From Mobula hypostoma (taxonomy: Eukaryota), in NCBI RefSeq assembly GCF_963921235.1, contig NC_086108.1, positions 78,928,001 through 78,992,000 of the forward strand: a stretch of 64,000 nucleotides of DNA, written 5' to 3'. This document shows positions 3,995 to 59,720 of this stretch, in pieces; position 1 is the stretch's first letter; each line of letters begins with the position of its first letter. A program made the position numbers and the translations under genes. Below the pieces are notes generated by a model. That model saw nothing but the letters and a program-made list of their open reading frames with translations, had not been told where the DNA came from and did not search any database.

Positions 3995-6112
3995 CAAGAA
4001 ACAGAGGAATTACTTGAGGTAAATGGACTATGGACATGTGGTCGATGTTTAGAGATCTCTTGCAGGATGTTAGGGATAAATTTGTCCCGGTAAGGAAGAT
4101 AAGGAATGGTAGGGTGAAGGAACCATGGGTGACAAGTGAGGTGGAAAATCTAGTCAGGTGGAAGAAGGCAGCATACTTGAGGTTTAGGAAGCAAGGATCA
4201 GATGGGTCTATTGAGGAATATAGGGAAGCAAGAAAGGAGCTTAAGAAGGGGCTGAGAAGAGCAAGAAGGGGGCATGAGAAGGCCTTGGCGAGTTGGGTAA
4301 AGGAAAACCCCAAGGCATTCTTCAATTATGTGAAGAACAAAAGGATGACAGGAGTGAAGGTAAGACCGATTAGAGATAAAGGTGGGAGATGTGCCTGGAG
4401 GCTGTGGAAGTGAGCGAGGTCCTCAATGAATACTTCTCTTCGGTATTCACCAACGAGAGGGAACTTGATGATGGTGAGGACAATATGAGTGAGGTTGATG
4501 TTCTGGAGTATGTTGTTATTAAGGGAAAGGAGGTGTTGGGGTTGTTAAAATACATTAGGATGGATAAGTCCCCGGGTCCTGACAGAATATTCCCCAGGCT
4601 GCTCCACGAGGCAAGGGAAGAGATTGCTGAGCCTCTGACTAGGATCTTTAAGCCCTCGTTGTCCACGGGAATGGTACCGAAGGATTGGAGGGAGGCGAAT
4701 GTTGTCCCCTTGTTCAAAAAAGGTAGTAGGGATAGTCCAGGTAATTAGAGACCAGTGAGCCTTACGTCTGTGGTGGGAAAGCTGTTGGAAAAGATTCTTA
4801 GAGATAGGATCTCTGGGCAGTTAGAGAATCATGGTCTGATCAGGGACAGTCAGCATGGCTTTGTGAAGGGCAGATCATGTCTGACAAGCCTGATAGAGTT
4901 CTTTGAGGAGGTGACCAGGCATATAGATGAGGATAGTGCAGTGGATGTAATCTATATGGATTTTAGTAAGGCATTTGACAAGGTTCCACACGGTAGGCTT
5001 ATTCAGAAAGTCAGAAGGCATGGGATCCAGGGAAGTTTGGCCAGGTGGATTCGGAATTGGCTTGCCTGCAGAAGGCAGAGGGTGGTGGTGGAGGGAGTAC
5101 ATTCAGATTGGAGGATTGTGACGAGTGGTGTCCCACAAGGATCTGTTCTGGGACCTCTACTTTTCGTGATTTTTATGAACGACCTGGATGTGGGGGTAGA
5201 AGGGTGGGTTGGCAAGTTTGCAGACGACACAAAGGTTGGTGGGGTTGTAGATAGTGTAGAGGATTGTCAAAGATTGCAGAGAGACACTGATAGGATGCAG
5301 AAGTGGGCTGAGAAGTGGCAGATGGAGTTCAACCCAGAGAAGTGTGAGGTGGTACACTTTGGAAGGACAAACTCCAAGGCAGAGTACAAAGTAAATGGCA
5401 GGATACTTGGTAGTGTGGAGAAGCAGGGGGATCTGGGGGCACATGTCCACAGATCCCTGAAAGTTGCCTCACAGGTGGATAGGGAAGTTAAGAAAGCTTA
5501 TGGGGTGTCAGCTTTCATAAGTCGAGGGATAGAGTTTAAGAGTCACGATGTAATGATGCAGCTCTATAAAACTCTGGTTAGGCCACACTTGGAGTACTGT
5601 GTCCAGTTCTGGTCACCTCACTATAGGAAGGATGTGGAAGCATTGGAAAGAGTACAGAGGAGATTTACCAGGATGCTGCCTGGTTTAGAAAGTATGCATT
5701 ATGATCAGAGATTAAGGGAGCTAGGGCTTTACTCTTTGGAGAGAAGGGGGATGAGAGGAGACATGATAGAGGTGTACAAGATAATAAGAGGAATAGATAG
5801 AGTGGATAGCCAGCACTTCTTCCCCAGGGCACCACTGCTCAATACAAGAGGACATGGCTTTAAGGGAAGGGGTGGGTTCAATGGGGATATTAGAGGAAGG
5901 TTTTTTTAGTCAGAGAGTGGTTGGTGCGTGGAATGCACTGCCTGAGTCAGTGGTGGAGGCAGATACACTAGTGAAGTTTAAGAGACTACTAGACAGGTAT
6001 ATGGAGGAATTTAAGGTGGGGGGTTATATGGGAGGCAGGGTTTAAGGGTTGGCACAACATTGTGGGCCGAAGGGCCTGTACTGTGCTGTACTATTCTATG
6101 TACTATGTTCTA
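3995..6112 (+). mobile_element. CR1 LINE, 5'-truncated, with frameshifted ORF2 (RT)
   Basis: ORFs 4030..4413, 4389..4748 and 4755..5909 (QHGF, YMDFSKAFDKV, GVPQGSVLGP, KFADDTK), then a CR1 3' UTR and (TTCTATG)n-like tail. Inserted into an older CR1 relic. Confidence 0.95.
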
Positions 6113-6365
6113 AATGGTGCATTTTTTTAAAAACTGGTTGTTGGTAGACAGTGATGGTCCTCCAAGTGCCAGTAACAGATTTGATATTATAAATAACTTG
6201 GATGATTGAACATGGAGTAAAAATTTGAAATATCCCAATGAAACCAAACCCTAGGATGCTGCAGAATGATAGGATGATGTTATTTGGCTACAATTGGACA
6301 TGGGCTAGTAAGTGGACAGACAATTGTCAAAATAATTTTAATTCAAAAAATTGTGAGGTTATGCT

Positions 6366-6677
6366 TTACTGGATTATGTGACGGTGGTAGTCCAGAGACA
6401 GTCCAGCATGTTTTGCTGAGCTGTAATCCATACAGAATTGAAAGAAGCAGGTTGTTTAAGAGGCTATCTGGCTTAAATTTATTTTGGTTTTCTATTAAAT
6501 CTTTGTTTGGCCATCAAGAGAATCAACATCTGATTGAAGAGTTTATTATTCAGTTTATACGTGACACTAGGTTGTATTCGAGAATTTGAGCTCCTTGAAG
6601 TTCTATAATAAATTATACATCCTGCGGAGGGCTGTAATACGCCTTGATGTGTCTAAACAGCTGGAAATAGAAGAAGA
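6366..6677 (+). mobile_element. 3' end of an I-group (Nimb-like) LINE
   Basis: C-terminal zinc knuckle CDGGSPETVQHVLLSC, an (AGA)n tail, and a 10-bp TSD AGGTTATGCT (6356-6365 / 6678-6687). Confidence 0.7.
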
Positions 6678-7886
6678 AGGTTATGCTGGGAGAGAAAATA
6701 TTGGCTCAACTGCACAATTCTAGAAGTGTTTGCTGCAATACTGGCACTTGTGTGATTACGCATAGATCCTTGGAGGTAGCAAGACATTGTTAGACACTGG
6801 TGAACAAAGCATTTAGGATCTTAGTTTGAAAATGAGATATATTCACAGAATCATACAGCACAGGTACAGGTCCTATCAGTCCATCTTCTCCATGAGAGTG
6901 GTGCCCATCTACACTAATCATATAGACCTGCATTTGCCCTGTATGCTTCAATACCTTTCCTATCTAAGTACCTTTTAAACTTAGAAATTATATCTACCGC
7001 TACCACCTCTTCAAGCAGTTTGTTCTAGATAACCACCAGTTAGGACAGAAAACTTACTCTTCAGATCTCCTTTAAAATTTTCTCTTCTCACTTTAATTCT
7101 GTGCTCCCTATTTCTAATACTGAAAGTCTAAAACTAATGTACAGAAGCAGAGAAGTTTTGCTAGCTAGGCCACAGCTGGAGTACTGCACCTAGTTCTGGT
7201 CACTGCAAAAATTAATCTCCATTTTACATCTTCATTACAATAGCCTCCAAGTCATAATCCTAACCAATGCATCCAGAACAATACCAGTCTCAGGCCAGTT
7301 TCTAGCAAGGCTCTGCTATTGCTTCAGCAGCCTTATTCTGTCTTTAATTGCAAAACAATAAATTGCTTCCAACAAGTTTGCTGCCCGACTGGAACTAATT
7401 AAAAGATGCATACACATCTGCACTCAGAACCTTCATGTGTTTGATGCTTATGGAGGGGTTAACATCCTATCCACCCATCCAGGGTCACTATTTGTGTTTA
7501 TATAGTATCCATTATAGAAGTCTCTTAACATTCTCCACCAGCTGGAAATCCTTCCCAGAAACCTGTACTCCGAATGCTAGTTCTCATCAAAGTCTCTTTA
7601 CTTCCGTATTTGGTGTTCATGTCTTTACCTGCCAAACTGCAAGGAGTCACAGAATCATAAAGCTTGTAAGCAGGCCCTTCAGCCCACCAAGTCTATGCCA
7701 ACAAAACCTTAGCATTTCCATCCCAACATGTGTCTGGTTCTCTTCAGTCTGAAGGAGAATAACAGGATTCAAATTTGGAAAAAAAAGTTTTTTTAGGTTT
7801 CCAATAGGAGTGTAAACTTTTTTTAAACAGCAACATTTTCTAATGTAAACCATAATTCATTGTGATAATTTTGAAATTAAATGGAC

Positions 7887-10800
7887 TCAAATGGATACTG
7901 TTGGGGGGGATGACTTACCTGGGACAAGCTGCAGTAGCCGGATCTCTGGCACTGAGTCTATTTCTGCAGTGCAGAGTGGAGGGTGGAAAAAGAGGAGAGC
8001 AGTAGTGATAGGGGACTCGATAGTTAGAGGTACAGATAGGAGGTTCTGTGGTCGTGACAGAGAATCCAGGATGGTTTGTTGCCTCCCGGGTGCCAGGGTC
8101 AAGGATGTCTCTGATCGCTTGCATGGCATTCTGAAGTGGGAGGGTGATCAGCCAGATGTCGTGGTGCACATCGGTACCAATGACATAGCAAGGAAGAGTG
8201 AGGAGGTCCTGGAGAGTGAGTATATAGAGCTTGGTGGGAAGTTGAAAAGCAGGACCTCGAGGGTGGTAATCTCAGGATTGCTACCTGTGCCACGTGCCCG
8301 TGAGGGTAAGAATAAGATGCTCTGGAAGATGAACAAATGGCTGAGGAACTGGTGTAGGGGGCAGGGTTTTAGATTTCAGGATCATTGGGACCTCTTCTGG
8401 GGCAGGTAGGACCTGTACAAGAGAGGTGGGTTACACTTGAACTACAAGGGGACCAATCTCCTTTCAGGGAGGTTTGTTAGTGCTTTTGGGGAGGCTTTAA
8501 ACTAGATTTGCAGGGGGATGGGAATCAGAGTGCCAGAGCTGACAGTGGGGCTGGGGTGAAAATAAATGATGTCAAAAGTTCAAGCAAATCCGCTGATAGA
8601 AAGGTTGTGAGTGGTGGTAAAAATCTTCTGAGGTGTATATATTTCAATGCTAGGAGTATTGCGGGAAAGGCAGACGAGTTGAGGGCGTGGATTGACATGT
8701 GGACTTATGACATTATAGCAATTAGTGAAACTTGGCTACAGGAGGGGCAGGACTGGCAGCTTAATATTCCAGAGTTCCGATGTTTCAGATGTGATCGAGG
8801 CAGAGGAATGAAGGGTGGGGGGCGGGTAGCATTGCTTGTCAGGGAAAATGTTACAGCAGTGCTCAGGCAGGACAGATTAGAGGGCTTGTCTACTGAGTCC
8901 TTATGGGTGGAGCTGAGAAACAGGAAAGGTATGGCCATATTAGTGGGGTTGTATTATAGACCACCCAATAGTCAGCGAGAATTGGAGGAGCAAATCTGCA
9001 GAGAAATAGCAGGCAACTGCAGGAAACATAAAGTTGTGGTGGTAGGGGATTTTATTTTCCACATATTGATTGGGACTCCCATACTGTTAGGGGTCTAGAC
9101 GGGTTAGAGTTTGTAAAATGTGTTCAGGAAAGTTTTCTAAATCAGTATATAGAGGTACCAACTAGAGAGGATGCAATATTAGATCTCCTATTAGGAAATG
9201 AGTTAGGACAAGTGACAGAAGTGTGTGTAGGGGAACACTTTGGTTCCAGTGATCATAACACCATTAGTTTCAACTTGATCATGGATAAAGATAGATCTGG
9301 CCCTAGGGTTGAGGTTCTAAACTGGAAGAAGGCCAAATTTGAAGAAATGAGAAAGGATCTAAAAAGCATGGATTGGGACAGGTTGTTCTCTGGCAAGGAT
9401 GTGATCGGTAAGTGGGAAGCCTTCAAAGGAGAAATTTTGAGAGTGCAGAGTTTGTATGTTCCTGTCGGGATTAAAGGCAAAGTGAATAGGAATAAGGAAC
9501 CTTGGTTCTCAAGGGATATTGCAACTCTGATAAAGAAGAAGAGAGAGTTGTAAGACATGTATAGGAAACAGGGAGTAAATAAGGTGCTTGAGGAGTATAA
9601 AAAGTGCCAGAAAATATTTAAGAAGGAAATCAGGAGGGCCAAAAGACACGAGGTTGCCTTGGCAGTCAATGTGAAGGATAATCCAAAGAGCTTTTACAGG
9701 TATATTAAGAGTAAAAGGATTGTAAGAGATAAAATTGGTCCTCTTGAAGATCAGAGTGGTTGGCTATGTGCGGAACCAAAAGAAATGGGGGAGATCTTAA
9801 ATGGGTTTTTCGCATCTGTATTTACTAAGGAAACTGGCATGAAGTCTGTGGAATTAAGGGAAACAAGTAATGCAATCATGGAAACTGTACAGATTGAAAA
9901 GGAGGAAGTGCTTGCTATCTTGAGGCAAAATAAAGTGGATAAATCCCCAGGACCTGATAGGGTGTTCCCTCGGACCTTGAAGGAGACCAGTGTTGAAATT
10001 GCAGGGGCCCTGGCAGATATATTTAAAATGTCGGTGTCTACGGGTGAGGTGCCGGAGGATTGGACAATGGCTCATGTTGTTCCGTTGTTTAAAAAAGGAT
10101 CGAAAAGTAATCCAGGAAATTATAGGCCGGTAAGTTTGACGTTGGTAGTGGGTAAATTATTGGAGGGAGTACTAAGAGACAGAATCTACAAGCATTTGGA
10201 TAGACAGGGACTTATTAGGGAGAGTCAACATGGCTTTGTGCGTGGTAGGTCATGTTTGACCAATCTATTGGAGTTTTTCGAGGAGGTTACCAGGAAAGTG
10301 GATGAAGGGAAGGCAGTGGATATTGTCTACATGGACTTCAGTAAGGCCTTTGACAAGGTCCCGCTTGGGAGATTAGTTAGGAAAATTCAGTCGCTAGGTA
10401 TACATGGAGAGGTGGTAAATTGGATTAGACATTGGCTCAATGGAAGAAGCCAAAGAGTGGTAGTAGAGGATTGCTTCTCAGAGTGGAGGCCTGTGACTAG
10501 TGGTGTGGCACAGGGATCAGTGCTGGGCCCATTGTTATTTGTCATCTATATCAATGATCTGGATGATAATGTGGTAAATTGGATCAGCAAATTTGCTGAT
10601 GATACAAAGATTGGAGGTGTAGTGGATAGTGAGGAAGGTTTTCAAAGCTTGCAGGGGGATTTGGACCAGCTGGAAAAATGGGCTGAAAAATGGCAGATGG
10701 AGTTTAATACAGACAAGTGTGAGGTATTGCACTTTGGAAGGACAAACCAAGGTAGAACATACAGGGTAAATGGTAAGGCACTGAGGAGTGCAGTAGAACA

Positions 10801-11516
10801 GAGGGATCTGGGAATACAGATACAAAATTCCCTAAAAGTGGTGCCACAGGTAGATAGGGTCGTAAAGAGAGCTTTTGGTACATTGGCCTTTATTAATCAA
10901 GGTATTGAGTATAAGAGCTGGAATGTTATGGTGAGGTTGTATAAGGCATTGGTGAGGCCGAATCTGGAGTATTGTATTCAGTTTTGGTCACCAAATTACA
11001 GGAAGGATATTGATAAGGTTGAAAGAGTGCAGAGAAGGCTTACAAGGATGTTGCCGGGACTTGAGAAAGTGAGTTACAGAGAAAGGTTGAATAGGTTCGG
11101 ACTTTATTCCCTGGAGCGTAGAAGAATGAGGGGAGATTTGATAGAGGTATATAAAATTATGATGGGTATAGATAGAGTGAATGCAAGCAGGCTTTTTCCA
11201 CTGAGGCAAGGGGAGAAAGAAACCAGAGGACATGGGTTAAGGGTGAAGGGGGAAAAGTTTAAAGGGAACATTAGGAGAGGCTTCTTCACACAGAGAGTGA
11301 TGGGAGTGTGGAATGAGCTGCCAGACGAGGTGGTAAATGTGGGTTCTTTTTTAACATTTAAGAATAAATTGGACAGATACATGGATGGGAGGTGTATGGA
11401 GGGATATGGTCTGTGTGCAGGTCAGTGGGACTAGGCAGAAAATGGTTCGGCACAGCCAAGGAGGGCCAAAAGGCCTGTTTCTGTGCTGTAGTTTTTTATG
11501 GTTTCTATGGTTTCTA
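7887..11516 (+). mobile_element. near-full-length CR1 LINE: ORF1 SGNH esterase plus ORF2 APE-RT, inactivated
   Basis: ORF1 7891..8409 (VVIGDSIVRG, HIGTND, premature TAG), endonuclease 8508..9098 (YFNARSI, AISETW), RT 9557..11434 (625 aa), and a (GTTTCTATG)n tail. Confidence 0.96.
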
Positions 11517-36845: not shown

Positions 36846-38487
36846 TCTCCCTGCATAAAATGTGTTGAGCTCGAAAGGGAGTGAAGCATTACTAACATTC
36901 ATGATGTTCAGGTTCGCTTTGCAGGAAATAACGTCCTGGAAACCCTGCCAGAGTTGACGTGCATCCAGTTCCACCCCCATCCTCATTTGGAATTGTTCCT
37001 TTGCTCTTGAGATAGTCCTCCCCAAGCCATACCTGGTTTTCTTGTACAGACCTAGAATTTGAATGCCACAGCCAATGATGAACTTCCTAGCTCATCCACA
37101 GCTTTTGATATGTGTACGTACAGTATGTTCTCATAGTGAACAGCTGTGGCATACACACTCAGACTCGAAGATGAATCCTGAATACAGTCCAGCCTATCTG
37201 TTCAGAGCAATCCCGTAAGCACACCTGTGCCTCCCCTGACCATACCTTCTTGTTCCTTGCTATTGGTGCTGCAGTCTTCAGTCTCTGAGTCCATACTTGG
37301 GGATTAGAAGTACAACCAAATGATGAGCCTTCCGAGAGTGTCGGTGTGGGATAGCATGGTAAGTGCTCTTGATGATGGTGTAACAGTGATCCAGTGTGTT
37401 GTCCCTCTTTAAGATCGCCATCTTCAATACTTTCTATGAGCTCATTCCCAAATGCTCTTACTGCAAATTTTGCCAAGTCCAACAGAAGATTAATAATCAC
37501 CCATCTTATCCTCATTATATGTATCTCCAATTTTCCGACTTCCACAGAGCTGACACTATTAAGGAGCCTATAAACAGTCAACATTTATTTGTTTTTTCAA
37601 GATCATGGGTTAGCTTGTGTGCAAAAAGCCATCTAGCATGAAGGATTCACTCTTTGTACTCCAAGCATTGCTAACTGTGTTTATTTGGTTGAGTCCATTC
37701 TCAGTTTTTGACGCAAGATCGGAGAGAATGTTGGTAATTAATGAGCATTGTATTGCATGGAAGGGAGGACAGTAGGCTGATGAAGAGTGTGAAGTGCATT
37801 TTCTGAGCATTGAATGGACTCATGGAACTTGGGCTGTGATGTCAACCTCCCAAATTACCTCCCCCAATTCCTCTTATGCACTGCCAACTGACTTATGAGA
37901 GCAAACAAACCCTACCGCTGTAGAGTGAGGAAAGATATCAGTAAGTCTCGAACCTTATTGAAAACCACCTGGAAGAACTGCTGAACAAAATTGAACAGCA
38001 TTTTCCCTCCCTTTCAAATAAGTGTATGACTGGGTCAGGGATCCTTTCTCTGAATCTCCTGCTCAGCCTGAGATCTTGACTTTGAGAGAAGAGAGGGAAC
38101 TTTATGAGCTGCAGTCCGATCATGCACTCAAGTTGAGATTTACTGACCTGCCCCTGGTCAAGTTCTGGATTTTTATGAAAGGAGAGTATCCTGCCATTCA
38201 TAGGAAAGCAATGAACATTTTGCTGTAGTCTTCAACTTCTTACATGTATGAGCAAGCTTTTTCTTGTGTTACAATCATCAAGAGCATGGCTAAAAATCAT
38301 TTCATTTCAGTTGAAGGTGAATTCCATGTGTGCTTATCTCAAGTTCAACCCAGAATCGACTAATTGCGCAGCAAAAACAAGCACAGGTTTCATCTGCTAG
38401 GCCTATATTTGAGCCTGATCTTGTCGCGAAAGCATTTTTTCAAAGTCTTGTATAAAATTGTGTTAATTTATTCATAGGAAGAGGCGC

Positions 38488-38523
38488 AGTCGACGTTTCA
38501 GGCCGAGACCCTTCGTCAGGACT
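38488..38523 (-). ncRNA. minimal type I hammerhead ribozyme (Penelope pLTR)
   Basis: AGTC-CTGACGA-AGG GTCTCGG CCT-GAAAC-GTC^-GACT: an intact core with stem I AGTC/GACT. Confidence 0.8.
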
Positions 38524-40629
38524 AACTGAAGGAAGAGTGAGTAAGGGATTTGAAAGCTGGAGGGGGAGGAGGAGATGCAAAATGATAGGAGAAGACAGGA
38601 GGGGGAGGGATAGAGCCGAGAGCTGGACAGGTGATAGGCAAAAGGGGATACGAGAAGATCATGGGACAGGAGGTCTGGGAAGAAAGACAAGGGGGGGGGG
38701 TGACCCAGAGGATGGGCAAGAGGTATATTCAGAGGGACAGAGGGAGAAAAAGGAGAGTGAGAGAAAGAAGGTGTGCATAAAAATGAGTAACAGATGGGGT
38801 ACGAGGGGGAGGTGGGGCCTAGCGGAAGTTAGAGAAGTCGATGTTCATGCCATCAGGTTGGAGGCTACCCAGACGGAATATAAGATGTTGTTCCTCCAAC
38901 CTGAGTGTGGCTTCATCTTTACAGTAGAGGAGGCCATGGATAGACATGTCAGAATGGGAATGGGATGTGGAATTAAAATGTGTGGCCACTGGGAGATCCT
39001 GCTTTCTCTGGTGGACAGAGCGTAGATGTTCAGCAAAGCGGTCTCCCAGTCTGTGTCGGGTCTCACCAAAATATAAAAGGCCACATCGGGAGCACCGGAC
39101 GCAGTATATCACCCCAGTCGACTCACAGGTGAAGTGATGCCTCACCTGGAAGGACTGTTTGGGGCCCTGAATGGCGGTAAGGGAGGAAGTGTAAGGGCAT
39201 GTGTAGCACTTGTTCCACTTACACGGATAAGTGCCAGGAGGGAGATCAGTGGGGAGGGATGGGGGGGACGAATGGACAAGGGAGTTATGTAGGGAGCTTC
39301 CTGCACGCATGCAGAACTCGTTGACTTTATTAACTTTGCCTCCAATTTTCACCCTGCCCTCAAGTTTACCTGGTCCATTTCCGACACCTCCCTCCCCTTT
39401 TTAGATCTTTCTGTCTCTGTCTCTGGAGACAGCTTATCCACTGATGTCTACTATAAGCCTACTGACTCTCACAGCTATCTGGACTATTCCTCTTCTCACC
39501 CTGTCTCTTGCAAAAACGCCATCCCCTTCTCGCAATTCCTCCGTCTCCGCCGCATCTGCTCTCAGGATGAGGCTTTTCATTCTAGGACGAGGGAGATGTC
39601 TTCCTTTTTTAAAGAAAGGGGCTTCCCTTCCTCCACTATCAACTCTGCTCTTAAACGCATCTCCCCCATTTCACGTACATCTGCTCTCACTCCATCCTCC
39701 CACCACCCCACTAGGAATAGGGTTCCCCTGGTCCTCACCTACCACCCCACCAGCCTCCGGGTCCAACATATTATTCTCCGTAACTTCCGCCACCTCCAAA
39801 GGGATCCCACCACTAAGCACATCTTTCCCTCCCCCCCCCTGCATTCCGCAGGGATCGCTCCCTGCACAACTTCCTTGTCCATTCGTCCCCCCCATCCCTC
39901 CCCACTGATCTCCCTCCTGGCACTTACCCGTGTAAGCGGAACAAGTGCTACACATGCCCTTACACTTCCTCCCTTACCACCATTCAGGGCCCCAAACAGT
40001 CCTTCCAGGTGAGGCATCACTTCACCTGTGAGTCGACTGGGGTGATATACTGCGTCCGGTGCTCTCGATGTGGCCTTTTATATATTGGTGAGACCCGACA
40101 CAGACTAGGAGACCGCTTTGCTGAACATCTACGCTCTGTCCGCCAGAGAAAGCAGGATCTCCCAGTGGCCACACATTTTAATTCCACATCCCATTCCCAT
40201 TCTGACATGTCTATCCACGGCCTCCTCTACTGTAAAGATGAAGCCACACTCAGGTTGGAGGAACAACATCTTATATTCCATCTGGGTAGCCTCCAACCTG
40301 ATGGCATGAACATCAACTTCTCTAACTTCCGCTAGGCCCCACCTCCCCCTCGTACCCCATCTGTTACTCATTTTTATGCACACATTCTTTCTCTCACTCT
40401 CCTTTTTCTCCCTCTTTCCCTCTGAATATACCTCTTGCCCATCCTCTGGGTCACCCCCCCCACTCATCTTTCTTCCCAGACCTCCTGTCCCATGATCCTC
40501 TCATATCCCTTTTGCCTATCACCTGTCCAGCTCTCGGCTCTATCCCTCCCCCTCCTGTCTTCTCCTATCATTTTGCAGCTCCCCCTCCCCCTCCAGATTT
40601 CAAATCCGTTACTCACTCTTCCTTCAGTT

Positions 40630-40665
40630 AGTCCTGACGAAGGGTCTCGGCCTGAAACGTCGCCT
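40630..40665 (+). ncRNA. minimal type I hammerhead ribozyme (one stem I mismatch)
   Basis: AGTC-CTGACGA-AGGGTCTCGGCCT-GAAAC-GTC-GCCT. Confidence 0.75.
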
Positions 40666-42257
40666 GCACGTCTTCCTACAGATGCTGCTTGGCCTGCTGC
40701 GTTTACCAGCAACTTTGATGTAGGTTGCTTGAATTTCCAGTATCTGCAGAATTCCTGTTGTTTTAATTTATTCATATTGCTTTGGCTTATGGTTTTCAGC
40801 AACTTTATTATTCAACATTATCAATACATTTTCATGTTGTAAATAGCATTAATTAGAATCAATTTACAATCTTTATTTAAATTAAATCTACTGAGCCTAC
40901 CTATAGAAATATAAATCCTACTTTGGCTTAAGCCAGTTATTTAACAAATTTACTATGTTTTCCTTATGAGTTTTTAAAATTTATTAAATGAGAAGAGATT
41001 ACTTTCAAGAAAGGCAAACAAAGCTTAACTACCTGTTTTTTTCAAGAAAGGTTGTCTCAAATTTATTTTCTACTCAAAAAGCATTGACAATTATTTTTGG
41101 ATTATTATATCTGCAATTTACTGATCACACCATCATACTGAGAGCTGTAGATATAATTTTTTTTTAATGAACCAAAGGGTTCCCAGAGACTTGAAACTTA
41201 TTTCAAGATGTCCTCCAGGGCGAAAAGCTTGAGAAAGGCCTTGGTGGGGACGGACGGACATGGACACACACACACACACTTATCCGCACCTTCCTTCTAC
41301 AGTATACCTCCCTTTTAATAAATCATTTCTCTTCTCATCTATCTCAGCTCCTTTTGTCTTCCCAAACCCTCCCCCCCACCCCACCAATGCATCATGTTCT
41401 GCTACCCACAGCTCTCACTGCTGCTGCTCACTTTTGCCTGGTTTGAGACCAATCCAGACTCTCAACTGTCACTGCTCATCTTCTCTAATACTGTACTCCT
41501 CAAGAATTGCATTGCCCCTCTCAAAATCCCAACTGGTTTGCCATTCAAGATCTGTAAAGCCCCTGAAAAACATCCCCAGAAAACAACAAAGCCAATATTT
41601 CCCAGCATTGGCAAATTCTCCACTTCCCTCATTCCACCATCAATCTCCCTTTTATCCACCTTTCATTCCCTCTCCACTAACCCTATTGAACTACCTCCAT
41701 TCTCCAGCTACAGGGCACTCACTCTAATCCAGGGCAAAGTCAACCACTCCCTGTCACTACTCACCCTCTTCAGGACCGTTCCTCACTTGATCTTTCTATG
41801 AGCCCAGCAGCGCCTACTGCCACCCCAGCTCAGACCCCACCTCTGAGACCTATCAAATAAGACTTAAACAAAACAGGTAAAATGTCTTCACCCGAAACAC
41901 CAACTGTCCATTTCCCTCTACAGATGTTGCCTGATGCATTGAGTTCTTCCAGCAGTATTTCTTGTAGTCTTCGTCTCACTTTAAAGAACCGTAAGCACCA
42001 GCTTGGGGCCTGATGTAAGCAGATTGTAGTTTTGACACCCAATATTAACCAAGACTTGCGATGGAGAGACTGTATTAAATCATGTCAGCTGGACTGATCC
42101 ACCAGAGGTAATTGAAAATCTAAAGCAGGAAAACACTTTCAGCTCACCATACCCATACTGCGACGTTGAAAGTTATACAATCAATTCCCTTGCTCAATCC
42201 TAAGACCCAAGCACTCTTGCATAAATATATTCAATTCTCTTGAAATTTACCATTGAT

Positions 42258-55822: not shown

Positions 55823-56281
55823 CTGCAGAAATGAAAAAGGTAACGTTCAATTTTATAGAGCAATTTTTTTTTAAAGCAGGTGCAGCATCAAGTTTGTGAG
55901 GGATAACTAAAATTTCCCCCCCTCCTCCACCAACCCACAAATAACCTATTAACTCATGACGCTTAGCATCTTCATTCTGCACTGTTACACCGAGTACAGT
56001 GATTCGCATTCAAGGATGTATTCTACTCTTAAATGCAAAAAAAATTAGAAGTATATTCATGAATGCTCGACAATTTCCACCGGATCTGCTGAACATCTCC
56101 AGCAATTTGTTTACTCATGAGGGGTCAATTACAATGTTGTTGAATCCGCTGCGTTTAAAATAATGGATATAAGAATGATCAAAAATGTTTAGTAGACTTA
56201 CGTTAGTTAGTATGAAGGGAAACATGATATGGAAACTTAAATTCTTAAGTCAGGGAAGCAAAACAAATATTAAACCATAGT

Positions 56282-56475
56282 GGGGTATATGGGGTGTCAG
56301 GGAGGGGTAGCACCTCTGGTGGGAGAACATGTCGCGTCCTTTTCAGGGCGGTTAGTCCACCTTTGGTCCCCACCTGGCACTCAGCTCTCACCTGTGGCTC
56401 CCCGTAGCTGTTTGCATGCGACAGCGGCCACACCCCGGGCAACGGCTTCGACAAGCCGGCTAAACCAGGTGAGGG
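56282..56475 (+). ncRNA. HDV-like (delta-like) self-cleaving ribozyme
   Basis: P1 GGGGTGT (56291-97, or GGGGTAT 56282-88)/ACACCCC; P2 CTCTCACCTG/CAGGTGAGGG; P3 GGC/GCC; L3 TCCCCGT; GG-GCAA; P4 CGGCTT-CGAC-AAGCCG; J4/2 GCTAAA. Confidence 0.72.
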
Positions 56476-56822
56476 TAGCCGACGGGTCTCAAACCCTCGG
56501 TGAGATAGGGAGTTGTCTATCCCAGCATGTGAAGATAGACTCTGGTGGACTGAGCGGACGAGACCAATGGAAGGTCCAACGGTCGAGAAGGTGGTCTCTG
56601 CAAGCGTCGTGGAACATGTAGAGCAGGACAAGACACAGAAGATGTCCTGGTCATCCGCCATCTAGACTCTGTCTTGCCACTGGACCCAGATGGGAATTGG
56701 GAAGAGAGTGAGGCTGACGCTGCGCAACTCTCCCTCACTTAAATCCAAATCACGCGCTAGTCTCGACACTATCATAATGGTGTCGAGGTCCTCATCGACG
56801 TCAACGATGGACGAACAACAAC
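56283..56822 (+). mobile_element. non-autonomous, probably RTE-derived retroelement in the last ATP6V0B intron
   Basis: CpG-rich, no RT ORF, (ACA)n tail, TSD AAACCAYAGTG (56272-56282 / 56823-56833), and a 5' HDV-like ribozyme. Confidence 0.8.
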
Positions 56823-57368
56823 AAACCACAGTGAAAATTGAGAATGGAACACTAGACTAACAGAAATTCGAGTGGAATAAGAAGTTCCCAGTAAAGATCT
56901 AAGCAAGCTAGAATTTGACACGGTTTGAGGATGGAAGGCACACTGGGAAGCTATTATAACATTAGGGCCTGCAGGCTTCACAAGGTTCCGATGGCAGGTG
57001 GAAGCAGCCAGTCCTTAGATGGGGCAATGCAGATTTTTAGAGGATGATGATGGCAATGACAGTGGATGTCAGAATACAGTACCTCAGGAAAAAATTGTAG
57101 CAAGTATTGATATTGTACAGGATCCAAAAAAATATTTCGAACATTGAAATGCTGGTTAGTTTGAACTCAGAAGGGCAGAAGTTACTGACATCAAAAGCAT
57201 GAACTAGTGACAACTAGCACATCTGGTGATTATTCAGTCATATGGCTGGGATTTATCATAGGTACAATCATCCAATGCAATCTATGGGACAGGCTTAAAG
57301 AATCAGCAAGTCTCTTCAGCTTTTGTAAAGTAATATTGAAACTTTAAACAATAACATTATTCACTAAA

Positions 57369-59720
57369 CGCAGTATGTGAGCTGTACAACCAGAGGGGAG
57401 AGGACTCTGGATTTGATGTACGCTAACGTTAAGGATACATACAGCTCCTCTCCCCTCCCCCCATTGGGAAGGTCAGATCACAACCTGGTGCATCTCAAAC
57501 CCTGCTACGTGCCTCTGGTGAAGAGTAAACCTGCAACCTCGAGGACAGTGAGGAAATGGTCGGAGGAGGCTTATGAGGTGCTCCAGGGTTGTTTTGAGGT
57601 GACAGACTGGCAGGCACTCTGTGAGCCACATGGAGAGGATATTGATGGGCTCACAGAGTGCATCACTGATTACATCAACTTCTGTGTGGACTGCAATGTT
57701 CCTACAAGAACTGTCCTTTGTTATTCAAATAACAAGCCATGGGTAACAAAGGACATTAAGGACATCCTGAACGCTAAAAAGAGGGTGTTTAGAGATGGAA
57801 ATAGGGAGGGGCTGAGGGCAATACAGAGGGACCTGAAAGCCGGGATCAGGGAGGCTAAAGACAGGTACAGGAGGAAGCTTGAGTGGAAACTCCAGCAGAA
57901 CAACATGAGAGAGGTCTGGAGTGGGATGAGGACCATCACTGGGTTCTGGGAAACTAACAGCAGAGAAGCTGAAGGCAGTGTGGACAGGACCAACGAACTT
58001 AACCTGTTCTTTAACAGATTTGACATTGTGGCCCCTGCCCATCCCCCATATGAGTCATCTGTTGTCGGCCCCCAACCAAAAAATATTCCACTCTCCCTTC
58101 CTACCCCTCCTCACAGTCCCCCACCCTGCTCTCATGACTATACCCTTTCCCCACACAAAACCACCACCGTGGGCTTCACAGCTGAACAGGTGAGAAGACA
58201 GCCGAAACGTCTCAACCCAAGCAAGGCTGCAGGACCGGATAGTGTCAGTACCAGGGTGCTCAAAGCCTGTGCCCCTCAGCTATGTGGAGTACTTTGCCAT
58301 GTCTTCAACCTGAGCCTGAGGCTCCGGAGGATTCCTGTGCTGTGGAAAACGTCCTGCCTCATCCCTGTGCCGAAGAGGCCGTGCCCCAGCGGCCTCAATG
58401 ACTACAGACCAGTGACACTGACCTCCCACATCATGAAGACCCTGGAGAGACTTGTTTTGGAGCTGCTCCAGCCGATGGTTAGGCCACACTTAGATCCCCT
58501 CCAGTTCACCTACCAGCCCCAACTAGGAGTTGAGGATGCATCGTCCACCTGCTGAACCGTGTCCATGCCCACCTGGACAAGCCAGCAAGCACTGTGAGGG
58601 TCATGTTTTTGACTTCTCCAGTGCGTTCAACACCATCCGCCCTGCTCCGCTGGGGGAGAAGCTGACAGCGATGCAGATGGATGCTTTCCTGGTGTCATGG
58701 ATTCTTGATTACCTGACTGGCAGACCACAGTACGTGTGCTTGCAACACTGTGTGTCCCACAGAGTGATCAGCAGCACTGGGGCTCCACAGGGGACTGTCT
58801 TGTCTCCCTTTCTCTTCACCATCTACACCTCGGACTTCAACTACTGCACAGAGTCTTGTCATCTTCAGAAGTTTTCTGATGACTCTGCCATAGTTGGATG
58901 CATCAGCAAGCAAGATGAGGCCAAGTACAAGGCTACGGTAGGAAACTTTGTCACATGGTATGAGCAGAATTATCTGCAGCTTAATGTGAAAAAGACTAAG
59001 GAGCTGGTGGTAGACCTGAGGAGAGCTAAGGTACCGGTGACCCCAGTTTCCATCCAGGGCGTCAGTGTGGACATGGTGGAGGATTACAAATACCTGGGGA
59101 TACGAATTGACAATAAACTGGACTGATCAAAGAACACTGAGGCTGTCTACAAGAAGGGTCAGAGCCGTCTCTATTTCCTGAGGAGACTGAGGTCCTTTAG
59201 CATCTGCTGGACGATGCTGAGGATGTTCTACGAGTCTGTGGTGGCCAGTGCTATCATGTTTGCTGTTGTGTGCTGGGGCAGCAGGCTGAGGGTAGCAGAC
59301 ATCAACAGAATCAACAAACTCATTCGTAAGGCCAGTGATGTTGTGGGGATGGAACTGGACTCTCTGATGGTGGTGTCTGAAAAGAGGATGCTGTCCAAGT
59401 TGCTTGCCATCTTGGACAATGTCTCCCATCCACTACATAATGTACTGGTTGGGCACAGGAGTACATTCAGCCAGAGATTCATTCCACCGAGATGCAACAC
59501 AGAGCGTCATAGGAAGTCATTCCTGCCTGTGGCCATCAAACTTTACAACTCCTCCCTTGGAGGGTCAGACACTCTGAGCCAATAGGCTGGTCCTGGACTT
59601 ATTTCCTGGCATAATTTACATATTACTATTTAACTATTTATGGTTTTATTACTATTATTTATGGTGCAACTGTAATGAAAACCAATTTCCCCCGGGATCA
59701 ATAAAGTATGACTATGACTA
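57369..59720 (+). mobile_element. Rex1/Babar LINE, 5'-truncated and relatively young, in the last ATP6V0B intron
   Basis: ORFs 57377..58555 (endonuclease end GRSDH, KAAGPD), 58530..59126 (FSSAFNTI, GAPQGTVLSP, KFSDD) and 59214..59585; AATAAA and an (ATGACT)n tail. Confidence 0.93.

Follow-up and report, generated by a model that had tools for sequence, protein, structure and literature searches.

A two-part LINE derivative headed by a predicted HDV-type ribozyme with an additional hairpin beside L3

Among described ribozymes, drz-Agam-2-1, whose cleavage has been demonstrated, offers the closest comparison for the motif reported here. It combines a 7-bp P1, a structured J1/2 (P1.2), short linkers, a long P2 and a 3-bp P3 with an L3 that begins with UCC and carries G at position 6, a GG, and a J4/2 that begins with GCUAA. 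The short linkers, structured J1/2 and long P2 speed up drz-Agam-2-1 by as much as three orders of magnitude (PMC4908430). The same features recur at the head of a short retroelement in the window (the 64,000-nucleotide stretch of the Mobula hypostoma genome analyzed here), where they are known from a predicted fold. In drz-Agam-2-1, by contrast, a plain 7-nt L3 is combined with a very long P4; the motif described here has a P4 of 6 bp, a P1.2 of ~90 nt and, after L3, a 5-bp hairpin.

The R2 ribozymes and the genomic HDV ribozyme share further features with the motif. As in the R2 ribozymes, G1 lies at the 5′ boundary of the element and mismatches occur at the top of P1; its 5′ junctions, too, vary and show microhomology, as portrayed in the R2 literature for elements that self-cleave at their own terminus. 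The variation described there for R2-type ribozymes concerns J1/2, P4 and J1/4, and not a helix between L3 and P3 as found here. Compared with the genomic HDV ribozyme (bioRxiv 10.1101/2022.09.22.508989; PMC13635239), the motif has equivalents of U20, C21, C22, G25, GG, GCAA, G74, C75 and A77/A78; the likeness of its GCAA to that of genomic HDV had already been pointed out in an initial annotation of this DNA. It differs from genomic HDV in that G1 pairs with C instead of U, a 21-nt module takes the place of the eighth L3 base, and J1/2 is long.

For the element as a whole, the nearest parallels are the bipartite LINEs without open reading frames (RTESINE1/2, WALLSI3, MAR4_MD, Bov-A, NARTc and the R2 SIDEs), in which the 5′ and 3′ ends of a LINE are joined through an internal deletion and a small-RNA head is absent. 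Two-part derivatives are known for RTE, Ingi, Vingi and R2, and retention of the extreme 5′ end in bipartite LINEs has been linked to a ribozyme (PMC5786205). The present element belongs to a different family and host from those covered there, and its parent, junction and ribozyme have been mapped.

A relaxed HDV descriptor of our own design, which lets the P3 strands lie as far as 35 nt apart, returned one match in the 64-kb window, namely this locus, and none in 3000 dinucleotide shuffles of the 194 nt of the motif. With the canonical 7–8 nt L3, the same descriptor gave no match. The Rfam HDV, CPEB3 and drz models also gave no match, either in this stretch of the window (E up to 10) or at four related loci (E up to 1). 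Published RNArobo descriptors would miss the motif because they fix L3 at 7–8 nt and restrict J1/2 to at most 51 nt (PMC4870747 supplement); the expectation that standard descriptors would overlook it was thus correct. The L3 heptamer itself agrees with the published pattern TYYHCGY. A canonical fold using an earlier P3 3′ strand was ruled out, since no P1 3′ strand follows there. The P3 strands are separated by 28 nt, in place of a 7–8 nt L3 closed directly by P3, so we file the motif as a variant that likely works like an HDV ribozyme and not as a canonical member.

The first 194 nt of the element (56282–56475) are predicted to fit the HDV double pseudoknot, with C56460 as the putative general acid (Table 1). 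In the nested minimum-energy fold of the window copy, C56460 is paired in a competing helix. Every part of the HDV fold listed in the initial annotation was found in order and in its place except the 5′ strand of P1 (discussed below), and the J1/2 hairpin of ~90 nt must be added to that list.

Table 1. Coordinates of the retroelement and of its predicted parts in the window
Feature	Position	Strand	Remarks
Left target-site duplication	56272..56282	+	last base is the first G of the element
Whole short retroelement	56282..56822	+	541 bp here; family full length 566 nt
Predicted cut site	directly 5′ of G56282	+	
P1 5′ strand	56282..56288	+	GGGGTAT here (G-to-A at 56287); GGGGTGT in most copies
Long J1/2 hairpin (P1.2-like)	56292..56382	+	~90 nt, 3- and 2-nt linkers; contains the second GGGGTGT repeat
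P2 5′ strand	56385..56395	+	10 bp (56385–56394), plus T56395–A56464 beside a one-base bulge; invariant in five lineages
P3 5′ strand and L3 heptamer	56396..56405	+	P3 56396–98, L3 56399–56405
L3 in HDV numbering	56399, 56400/01, 56404		T56399 = U20, C56400/01 = C21/C22, G56404 = G25
Extra module	56406..56426	+	A, 5-bp hairpin (56407–56425) and G, between L3 and the P3 3′ strand
Extra hairpin stem	56407–11/56421–25	+	
P3 3′ strand	56427–29	+	
P1 3′ strand	56430–36	+	
P1.1	56437–38	+	GG
J1.1/4	56439–42	+	GCAA
P4 hairpin	56443..56458	+	6 bp, strands 56443–48/56453–58; 3 of 6 pairs with double changes
J4/2 and P2 3′ strand	56459..56475	+	putative catalytic C56460; P2 3′ strand 56466–56475
Rest of parent LINE 5′ leader	56476..56778	+	84–92% identical to parent copies up to query position 497
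11-bp hairpin	56762..56787	+	loop is the junction of the parent 5′ leader and 3′ end
Parent LINE 3′ end, short (AAC)n tail	56775..56822	+	83–91% to the 3′ ends of 6 of 11 parent loci
Right target-site duplication	56823..56833	+	

The predicted retroelement of ~540 bp headed by the motif was recovered as an insert between two 11-bp target-site duplications that differ at one position. The window copy lacks 22 and 2 nt near 56656 and 56702, respectively (24 nt relative to the 566-nt family length). A first search of the 3.48-Gb genome gave 3687 candidate copies, 40 of which were scored, at 87–100%; the family of short elements is present in thousands of genomic copies. Target-site duplications flank 48 of 62 family copies, compared with 3 of 62 in a flank-swap control, and the median divergence from the family majority is 3.3% (76 heads). 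No endonuclease is found within 1.5 kb of 75 of these 76 heads, the lone exception being the parent LINE. The element had been called non-coding, which holds in that it encodes no reverse transcriptase (RT) or endonuclease. Two open frames of the window copy, of 110 and 126 aa, have no Pfam match and are not kept in sister families.

Contigs from RNA runs (X15, X16, X19 and X20; X16 is only presumed RNA) cover the element, and are uninformative on strand, ends and expression. Those of X19 and X20, from runs of other origin, are short, 92–97% like the element and fall on window positions 56336–56724; the matches form small shares of these runs, could mean related hosts or horizontal spread, and are silent on habitat. 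Scans of viral contigs and prokaryote genomes found no copy of the motif. Elsewhere, the window is abundant in LINE-type repeats and holds pieces of other LINE frames with RT matches (57368–58555 and 9554–11434). It also contains a long inverted repeat at 38475–40678, with arms of 657 nt at 97% and 172 nt at 96% and a related piece near 988–1661, which is probably a foldback DNA element; two frames tested in it have no Pfam match.

The same head is found on full-length LINEs. A core pattern of the motif identified a metagenome record, WLWI01004976.1 (L141), that holds a full element with this head and a 1096-aa endonuclease-RT frame (PF03372, PF00078), and its protein then led to three LINE families in this genome, labeled families R1, R2 and R3. 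Families R1 and R2 carry the same head with the hairpin, and R3 lacks it. The direct parent of the short element is the single one of the 76 heads that runs on into an endonuclease (locus L164/L275). A search with the inner leader of the parent gave 30 loci, whose match to the short element stops near position 497, at a (CAT)n run, and which continue from there into more of the leader and an endonuclease-RT frame. Of 11 longer loci, six terminate with the final ~45 nt of the short element, and the four that were measured are 4050–4101 nt long. Positions 1–497 of the query match the start of the parent and positions 494–542 its end, 4 kb away, while 30 of 30 matches to the 3′ end of the short element were the short element itself. 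The parent copies seen are broken, covering 1009–1044 of 1071 aa in 6 of the 11 loci. Judged by these sequence matches, the short element is the first ~520 and the last ~45 nt of a 4.1-kb endonuclease/RT LINE of the same genome.

The short element thereby joins 5′ and 3′ ends by an internal deletion, has amplified in its own right and encodes neither RT nor endonuclease, as is typical of a bipartite non-autonomous LINE. Its head, which is the LINE leader, has no box A or B (by a simple pattern) and no Rfam small RNA, and the description of the element as SINE-like gives way to that of a two-part LINE derivative. The parent has a single frame with AP endonuclease and RT, and a short 3′ end with a tandem-repeat tail, an architecture that defines RTE. 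The parent is likely a member of the RTE clade, a label drawn from this architecture; an atlas assignment of the parent protein extends to the endonuclease family only.

Two other candidates for the partner LINE were set aside. A search with DUF6451 led to another LINE group, 30% identical to L141 and without the motif, which was rejected; family R3 (75% over query 232–505 and 84% over the last 32 nt) was superseded by the direct parent. R3 (L244:479–586 and the starts of L228 and L243) has no ribozyme core and a GC-rich 5′ end. Three of the seven R3 copies viewed have a 36-aa start resembling the glyoxalase superfamily (PF13669, E = 1.7e-5), a similarity which suggests that this 5′ end is a captured piece of a host gene, and two other copies have a different GC-rich head.

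Two further short families were observed. Family C (L245–L274) is 91–94% identical to family R2 over its first 379 nt, matches none of the LINE loci tested over the ~150 nt downstream of the R2-like part, and has no downstream endonuclease in any of 24 copies. Family B (L032–L060), of ~540 nt, is older (median 11.8% from its majority) and combines the same head with another 3′ half; no parent LINE was found for it. In L141, further RT- and RNase H-like frames overlap the LINE region (4342–8080, minus strand), and a short duplication of the LINE 3′ end lies at 7946–7990.

The extra hairpin between L3 and the 3′ strand of P3, noted earlier in the single copy, is present throughout the family. 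The core pattern with 22–33 nt between TCC and GCC has 2415 matches in the genome, all families mixed, and none in the reversed control. With 3–21 nt there are 23 matches, of which 21 are partial hairpin deletions and two are unrelated; no canonical family member with a short L3 was among them. This disparity marks the hairpin as a property of the family and not of the window copy only. The hairpin is also present in the heads of full-length LINEs, and, again from comparison of sequences, is inherited from the LINE lineage and not a trait of a SINE-like element. The L3 heptamer itself is intact, and the insert follows it at the position that the eighth L3 base occupies in genomic HDV. In genomic HDV, this base is flipped out and dispensable. 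The extra hairpin likely lies outside the active site, and would be tolerated rather than catalytic.

Five lineages were compared, A, B, R1, R2/C and L141. In all of them the hairpin keeps five pairs, and the changes seen at lineage level are two one-sided ones, to G–U, with a loop of 9 or 7 nt. A double change was seen once, in a single decayed copy. The predicted pairing probability is 0.37–0.45, with energies of −1.7 to −5.2 kcal/mol. This conservation is weakly consistent with a helix. The ribozyme may also cut, as in our preferred reading, with the 21-nt insert being a loose loop that was kept by common descent and could be deleted without effect; as to cleavage the two readings overlap. 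The lack of any lineage-level double change, the identity of the insert in three of the five lineages and the weak predicted stability of the helix would all fit a loose loop. We nevertheless consider it rather unlikely, since both lineage-level changes in the stem preserve pairing while the loop differs in sequence and in its number of nucleotides (9 or 7), the stem is conserved like the core whereas J1/2 and P4 turn over, and no lineage without the insert was found.

The remainder of the fold was examined across the same lineages. The L3 heptamers are TCCCCGT (A), TCCAAGT (B), TCCTCGT (R1), TCCAAGT (R2/C) and TCCACGA (L141), with positions 20, 21, 22 and 25 fixed and positions 23, 24 and 26 variable. 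The GG of P1.1, C75 and A77/A78 are also fixed in the five lineages, and position 76, after the C, varies. The active-site bases G1, U20, C21/C22, G25, G38/G39, C75 and A78 are invariant across the five lineage majorities, that of G1 in family R1 being based on two complete copies. U20–G25, P1.1 and the catalytic C are among the parts named as critical in papers on HDV ribozymes. The catalytic C is present in 54 of 54 copies, a count that is not evidence of selection, as the copies were anchored on a motif containing that base. Of the 152 heads clustered, 33, mostly decayed members of family B, remained unclustered and were regrouped by the search from which they originated.

Helices P1, P2, P3, P1.1 and P4 can form in all five lineages, and 93.6% of 653 cells are paired. 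Covariation was assessed in ten copies (a single one for L141, otherwise two or three from each family), leaving out within-family variation, which represents post-insertion decay. Double changes occur in 16 of 66 pairs, compared with 7.9 in shuffled and 3–6 in slid alignments, a type of count that is inflated by related rows. Twelve of these pairs are in J1/2 helices, three in P4 and one in the extra hairpin. Of the helices of the fold, P4 and J1/2 covary; P1, P2, P3 and P1.1 are conserved, with no double change in the ten copies. At L3 position 24, which is fixed as C in descriptors, families B and R2/C carry A. C-to-A and G-to-A substitutions in L3 are described for a sow bug R2 ribozyme that is inactive, and families B and R2/C may for this reason cut poorly, if the positions, which we matched by analogy, correspond.

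The start of the family consists of two tandem GGGGTGT repeats nine bases apart. Among 69 copies, the frequency of the majority base is 0.28–0.41 at positions −12 to −2, 0.67–0.90 at 1–6 and 0.93–1.00 from 7 on. Conservation sets in at the first G of the first repeat, the whole of which is kept by 43 of the 69. Among the 29 complete copies with a duplication, offset 0 is its commonest end point (11 copies), and 22 have the end between −1 and +2. The family 5′ boundary is G1 of P1, the placement known from retrotransposons, and coincides with the predicted cut. T is enriched at −1 (56281 here): 31 of 43 complete copies have it, against a T frequency of 0.29 in the flanks, as do 10 of 11 parent copies. 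It falls outside the duplication in 9 of 29 copies, which a clean cut at G1 alone does not explain.

The enrichment of T at −1, partly outside the duplication, would suit a ribozyme-derived fold that no longer cuts, the hairpin disabling its active site. The boundary would then be a transcription start at or near −1, and the fold would protect the 5′ end as a cap, bind a protein or act as a start for translation. In keeping with such a scenario, amplification with an unchanged boundary continued in two lineages whose L3 carries A at position 24, cap-like and IRES-like functions are known for HDV-like folds, promoter and ribozyme overlap in L1Tc, and the related family R3 has long open frames with another 5′ end and no ribozyme core. 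Against this, neighboring positions change whereas the catalytic C, G25, U20 and P1.1 do not, the boundary is on G1 in four lineages, and T at −1 can be explained by non-templated addition or target preference, as established for R2 elements. We consider loss of cleavage improbable.

The initial annotation had assigned GGGGTGT at the boundary as the 5′ strand of P1. The cut before G56282 is retained in our analysis, but the boundary strand of this copy is GGGGTAT, which leaves one mismatch in P1, and the perfect GGGGTGT lies nine bases inside the boundary, at 56291–97. Among 43 complete copies, the P1 5′ strand is GGGGTGT in 25 and GGGGTAT in 10. The latter was found in 4 of 19, 5 of 11 and 1 of 17 copies depending on the search route, and in none of 11 parent LINEs; its recurrence indicates that the variant probably descends from a source copy that was itself mobile. 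About a quarter of R2 ribozymes have mismatches at the top of P1 (PMC3774820). With the P1 3′ strand, the perfect repeat has a duplex energy of −11.8 kcal/mol in this copy, versus −8.3 kcal/mol for the boundary strand. P1 could in principle use the second repeat, cutting nine bases inside the boundary, as this is the only perfect partner in this copy and the one that the relaxed descriptor picks, and some copies start within the first repeat. That arrangement is very unlikely: a cut at 56291 would remove the first repeat, yet 43 of 69 copies retain all of it, and copies that start late usually retain its final bases. The second repeat is already paired within the J1/2 helix (pair probabilities of 0.78–1.00 in this copy), of which it forms the base in all five lineages, and in a nested fold of 56282–56445, P1 forms via the first repeat with probability 0.78 and via the second with 0.000. 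Finally, chance resemblance in a GC-rich repeat, for which one could cite the missing Rfam match and a descriptor relaxed to fit, is scarcely credible given the 0 of 3000 shuffles, the position of the motif at the exact start of several LINE families and the covariation.

Pairing between the two ends of the element was also explored. The junction of the parent 5′ leader and 3′ end forms the loop of an 11-bp hairpin (Table 1). In full-length elements, a Watson–Crick run joining the leader (~495–545, a window set following an initial inspection) to the 3′ end exceeded every ORF-window control in 8 of 13 copies (parent 2 of 4, R3 0 of 2, R2 3 of 3, R1 2 of 3, and L141), while by duplex energy the leader-to-tail pairing beat the controls in 3 of 13 only. 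Complementarity of this type was found at L309, L315, L232, L233, L239 and L141. These predictions provide partial confirmation of end-to-end pairing in full-length elements.

Taken as a whole, the locus is probably a two-part derivative of an RTE-type LINE, headed by an HDV-type ribozyme that likely cuts before G56282 and whose extra hairpin was inherited and is likely tolerated. The element would be read through from host or neighboring promoters. In the transcript, the long J1/2 helix would fold first and hide the second GGGGTGT, and, by analogy with the measurements on drz-Agam-2-1, could pinch P1 against the long P2. C56460 would act as general acid, and cleavage would free the element just before G56282. 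The parent LINE protein would then recognize the retained 3′ end and insert the RNA by target-primed reverse transcription. A more far-reaching reading is possible, and is put forward tentatively: that of a natural HDV subclass, active and with a fifth peripheral helix on L3, carried by an RTE-type LINE lineage and its two-part parasites in thousands of copies, missed by Rfam and descriptors, with the helix selected as a folding aid or as a docking site for the LINE protein.

We found no account of a helix between L3 and P3 in the literature searched, a scope that stops short of the early surveys of HDV-like ribozymes; such a helix is absent from the available portions of PMC6765202, PMC13708176, PMC11331408, PMC10879173, PMC2950038, PMC13635239, PMC8256844 and PMC6007223. 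It looks as if only the hairpin is undescribed, ribozyme-headed RTEs and two-part RTE derivatives being already in print. Because these are known, the gain is structural and moderate. Should the motif cleave, L3 would be able to accommodate a helix next to the active site, which would widen the HDV fold and offer a new site for engineering switches. Surveys with an L3 of fixed length would in that case miss thousands of ribozyme loci in animal genomes. The family also provides a clean pair of parent and parasite in which to ask whether a ribozyme frees two-part LINE derivatives from the need for a promoter.
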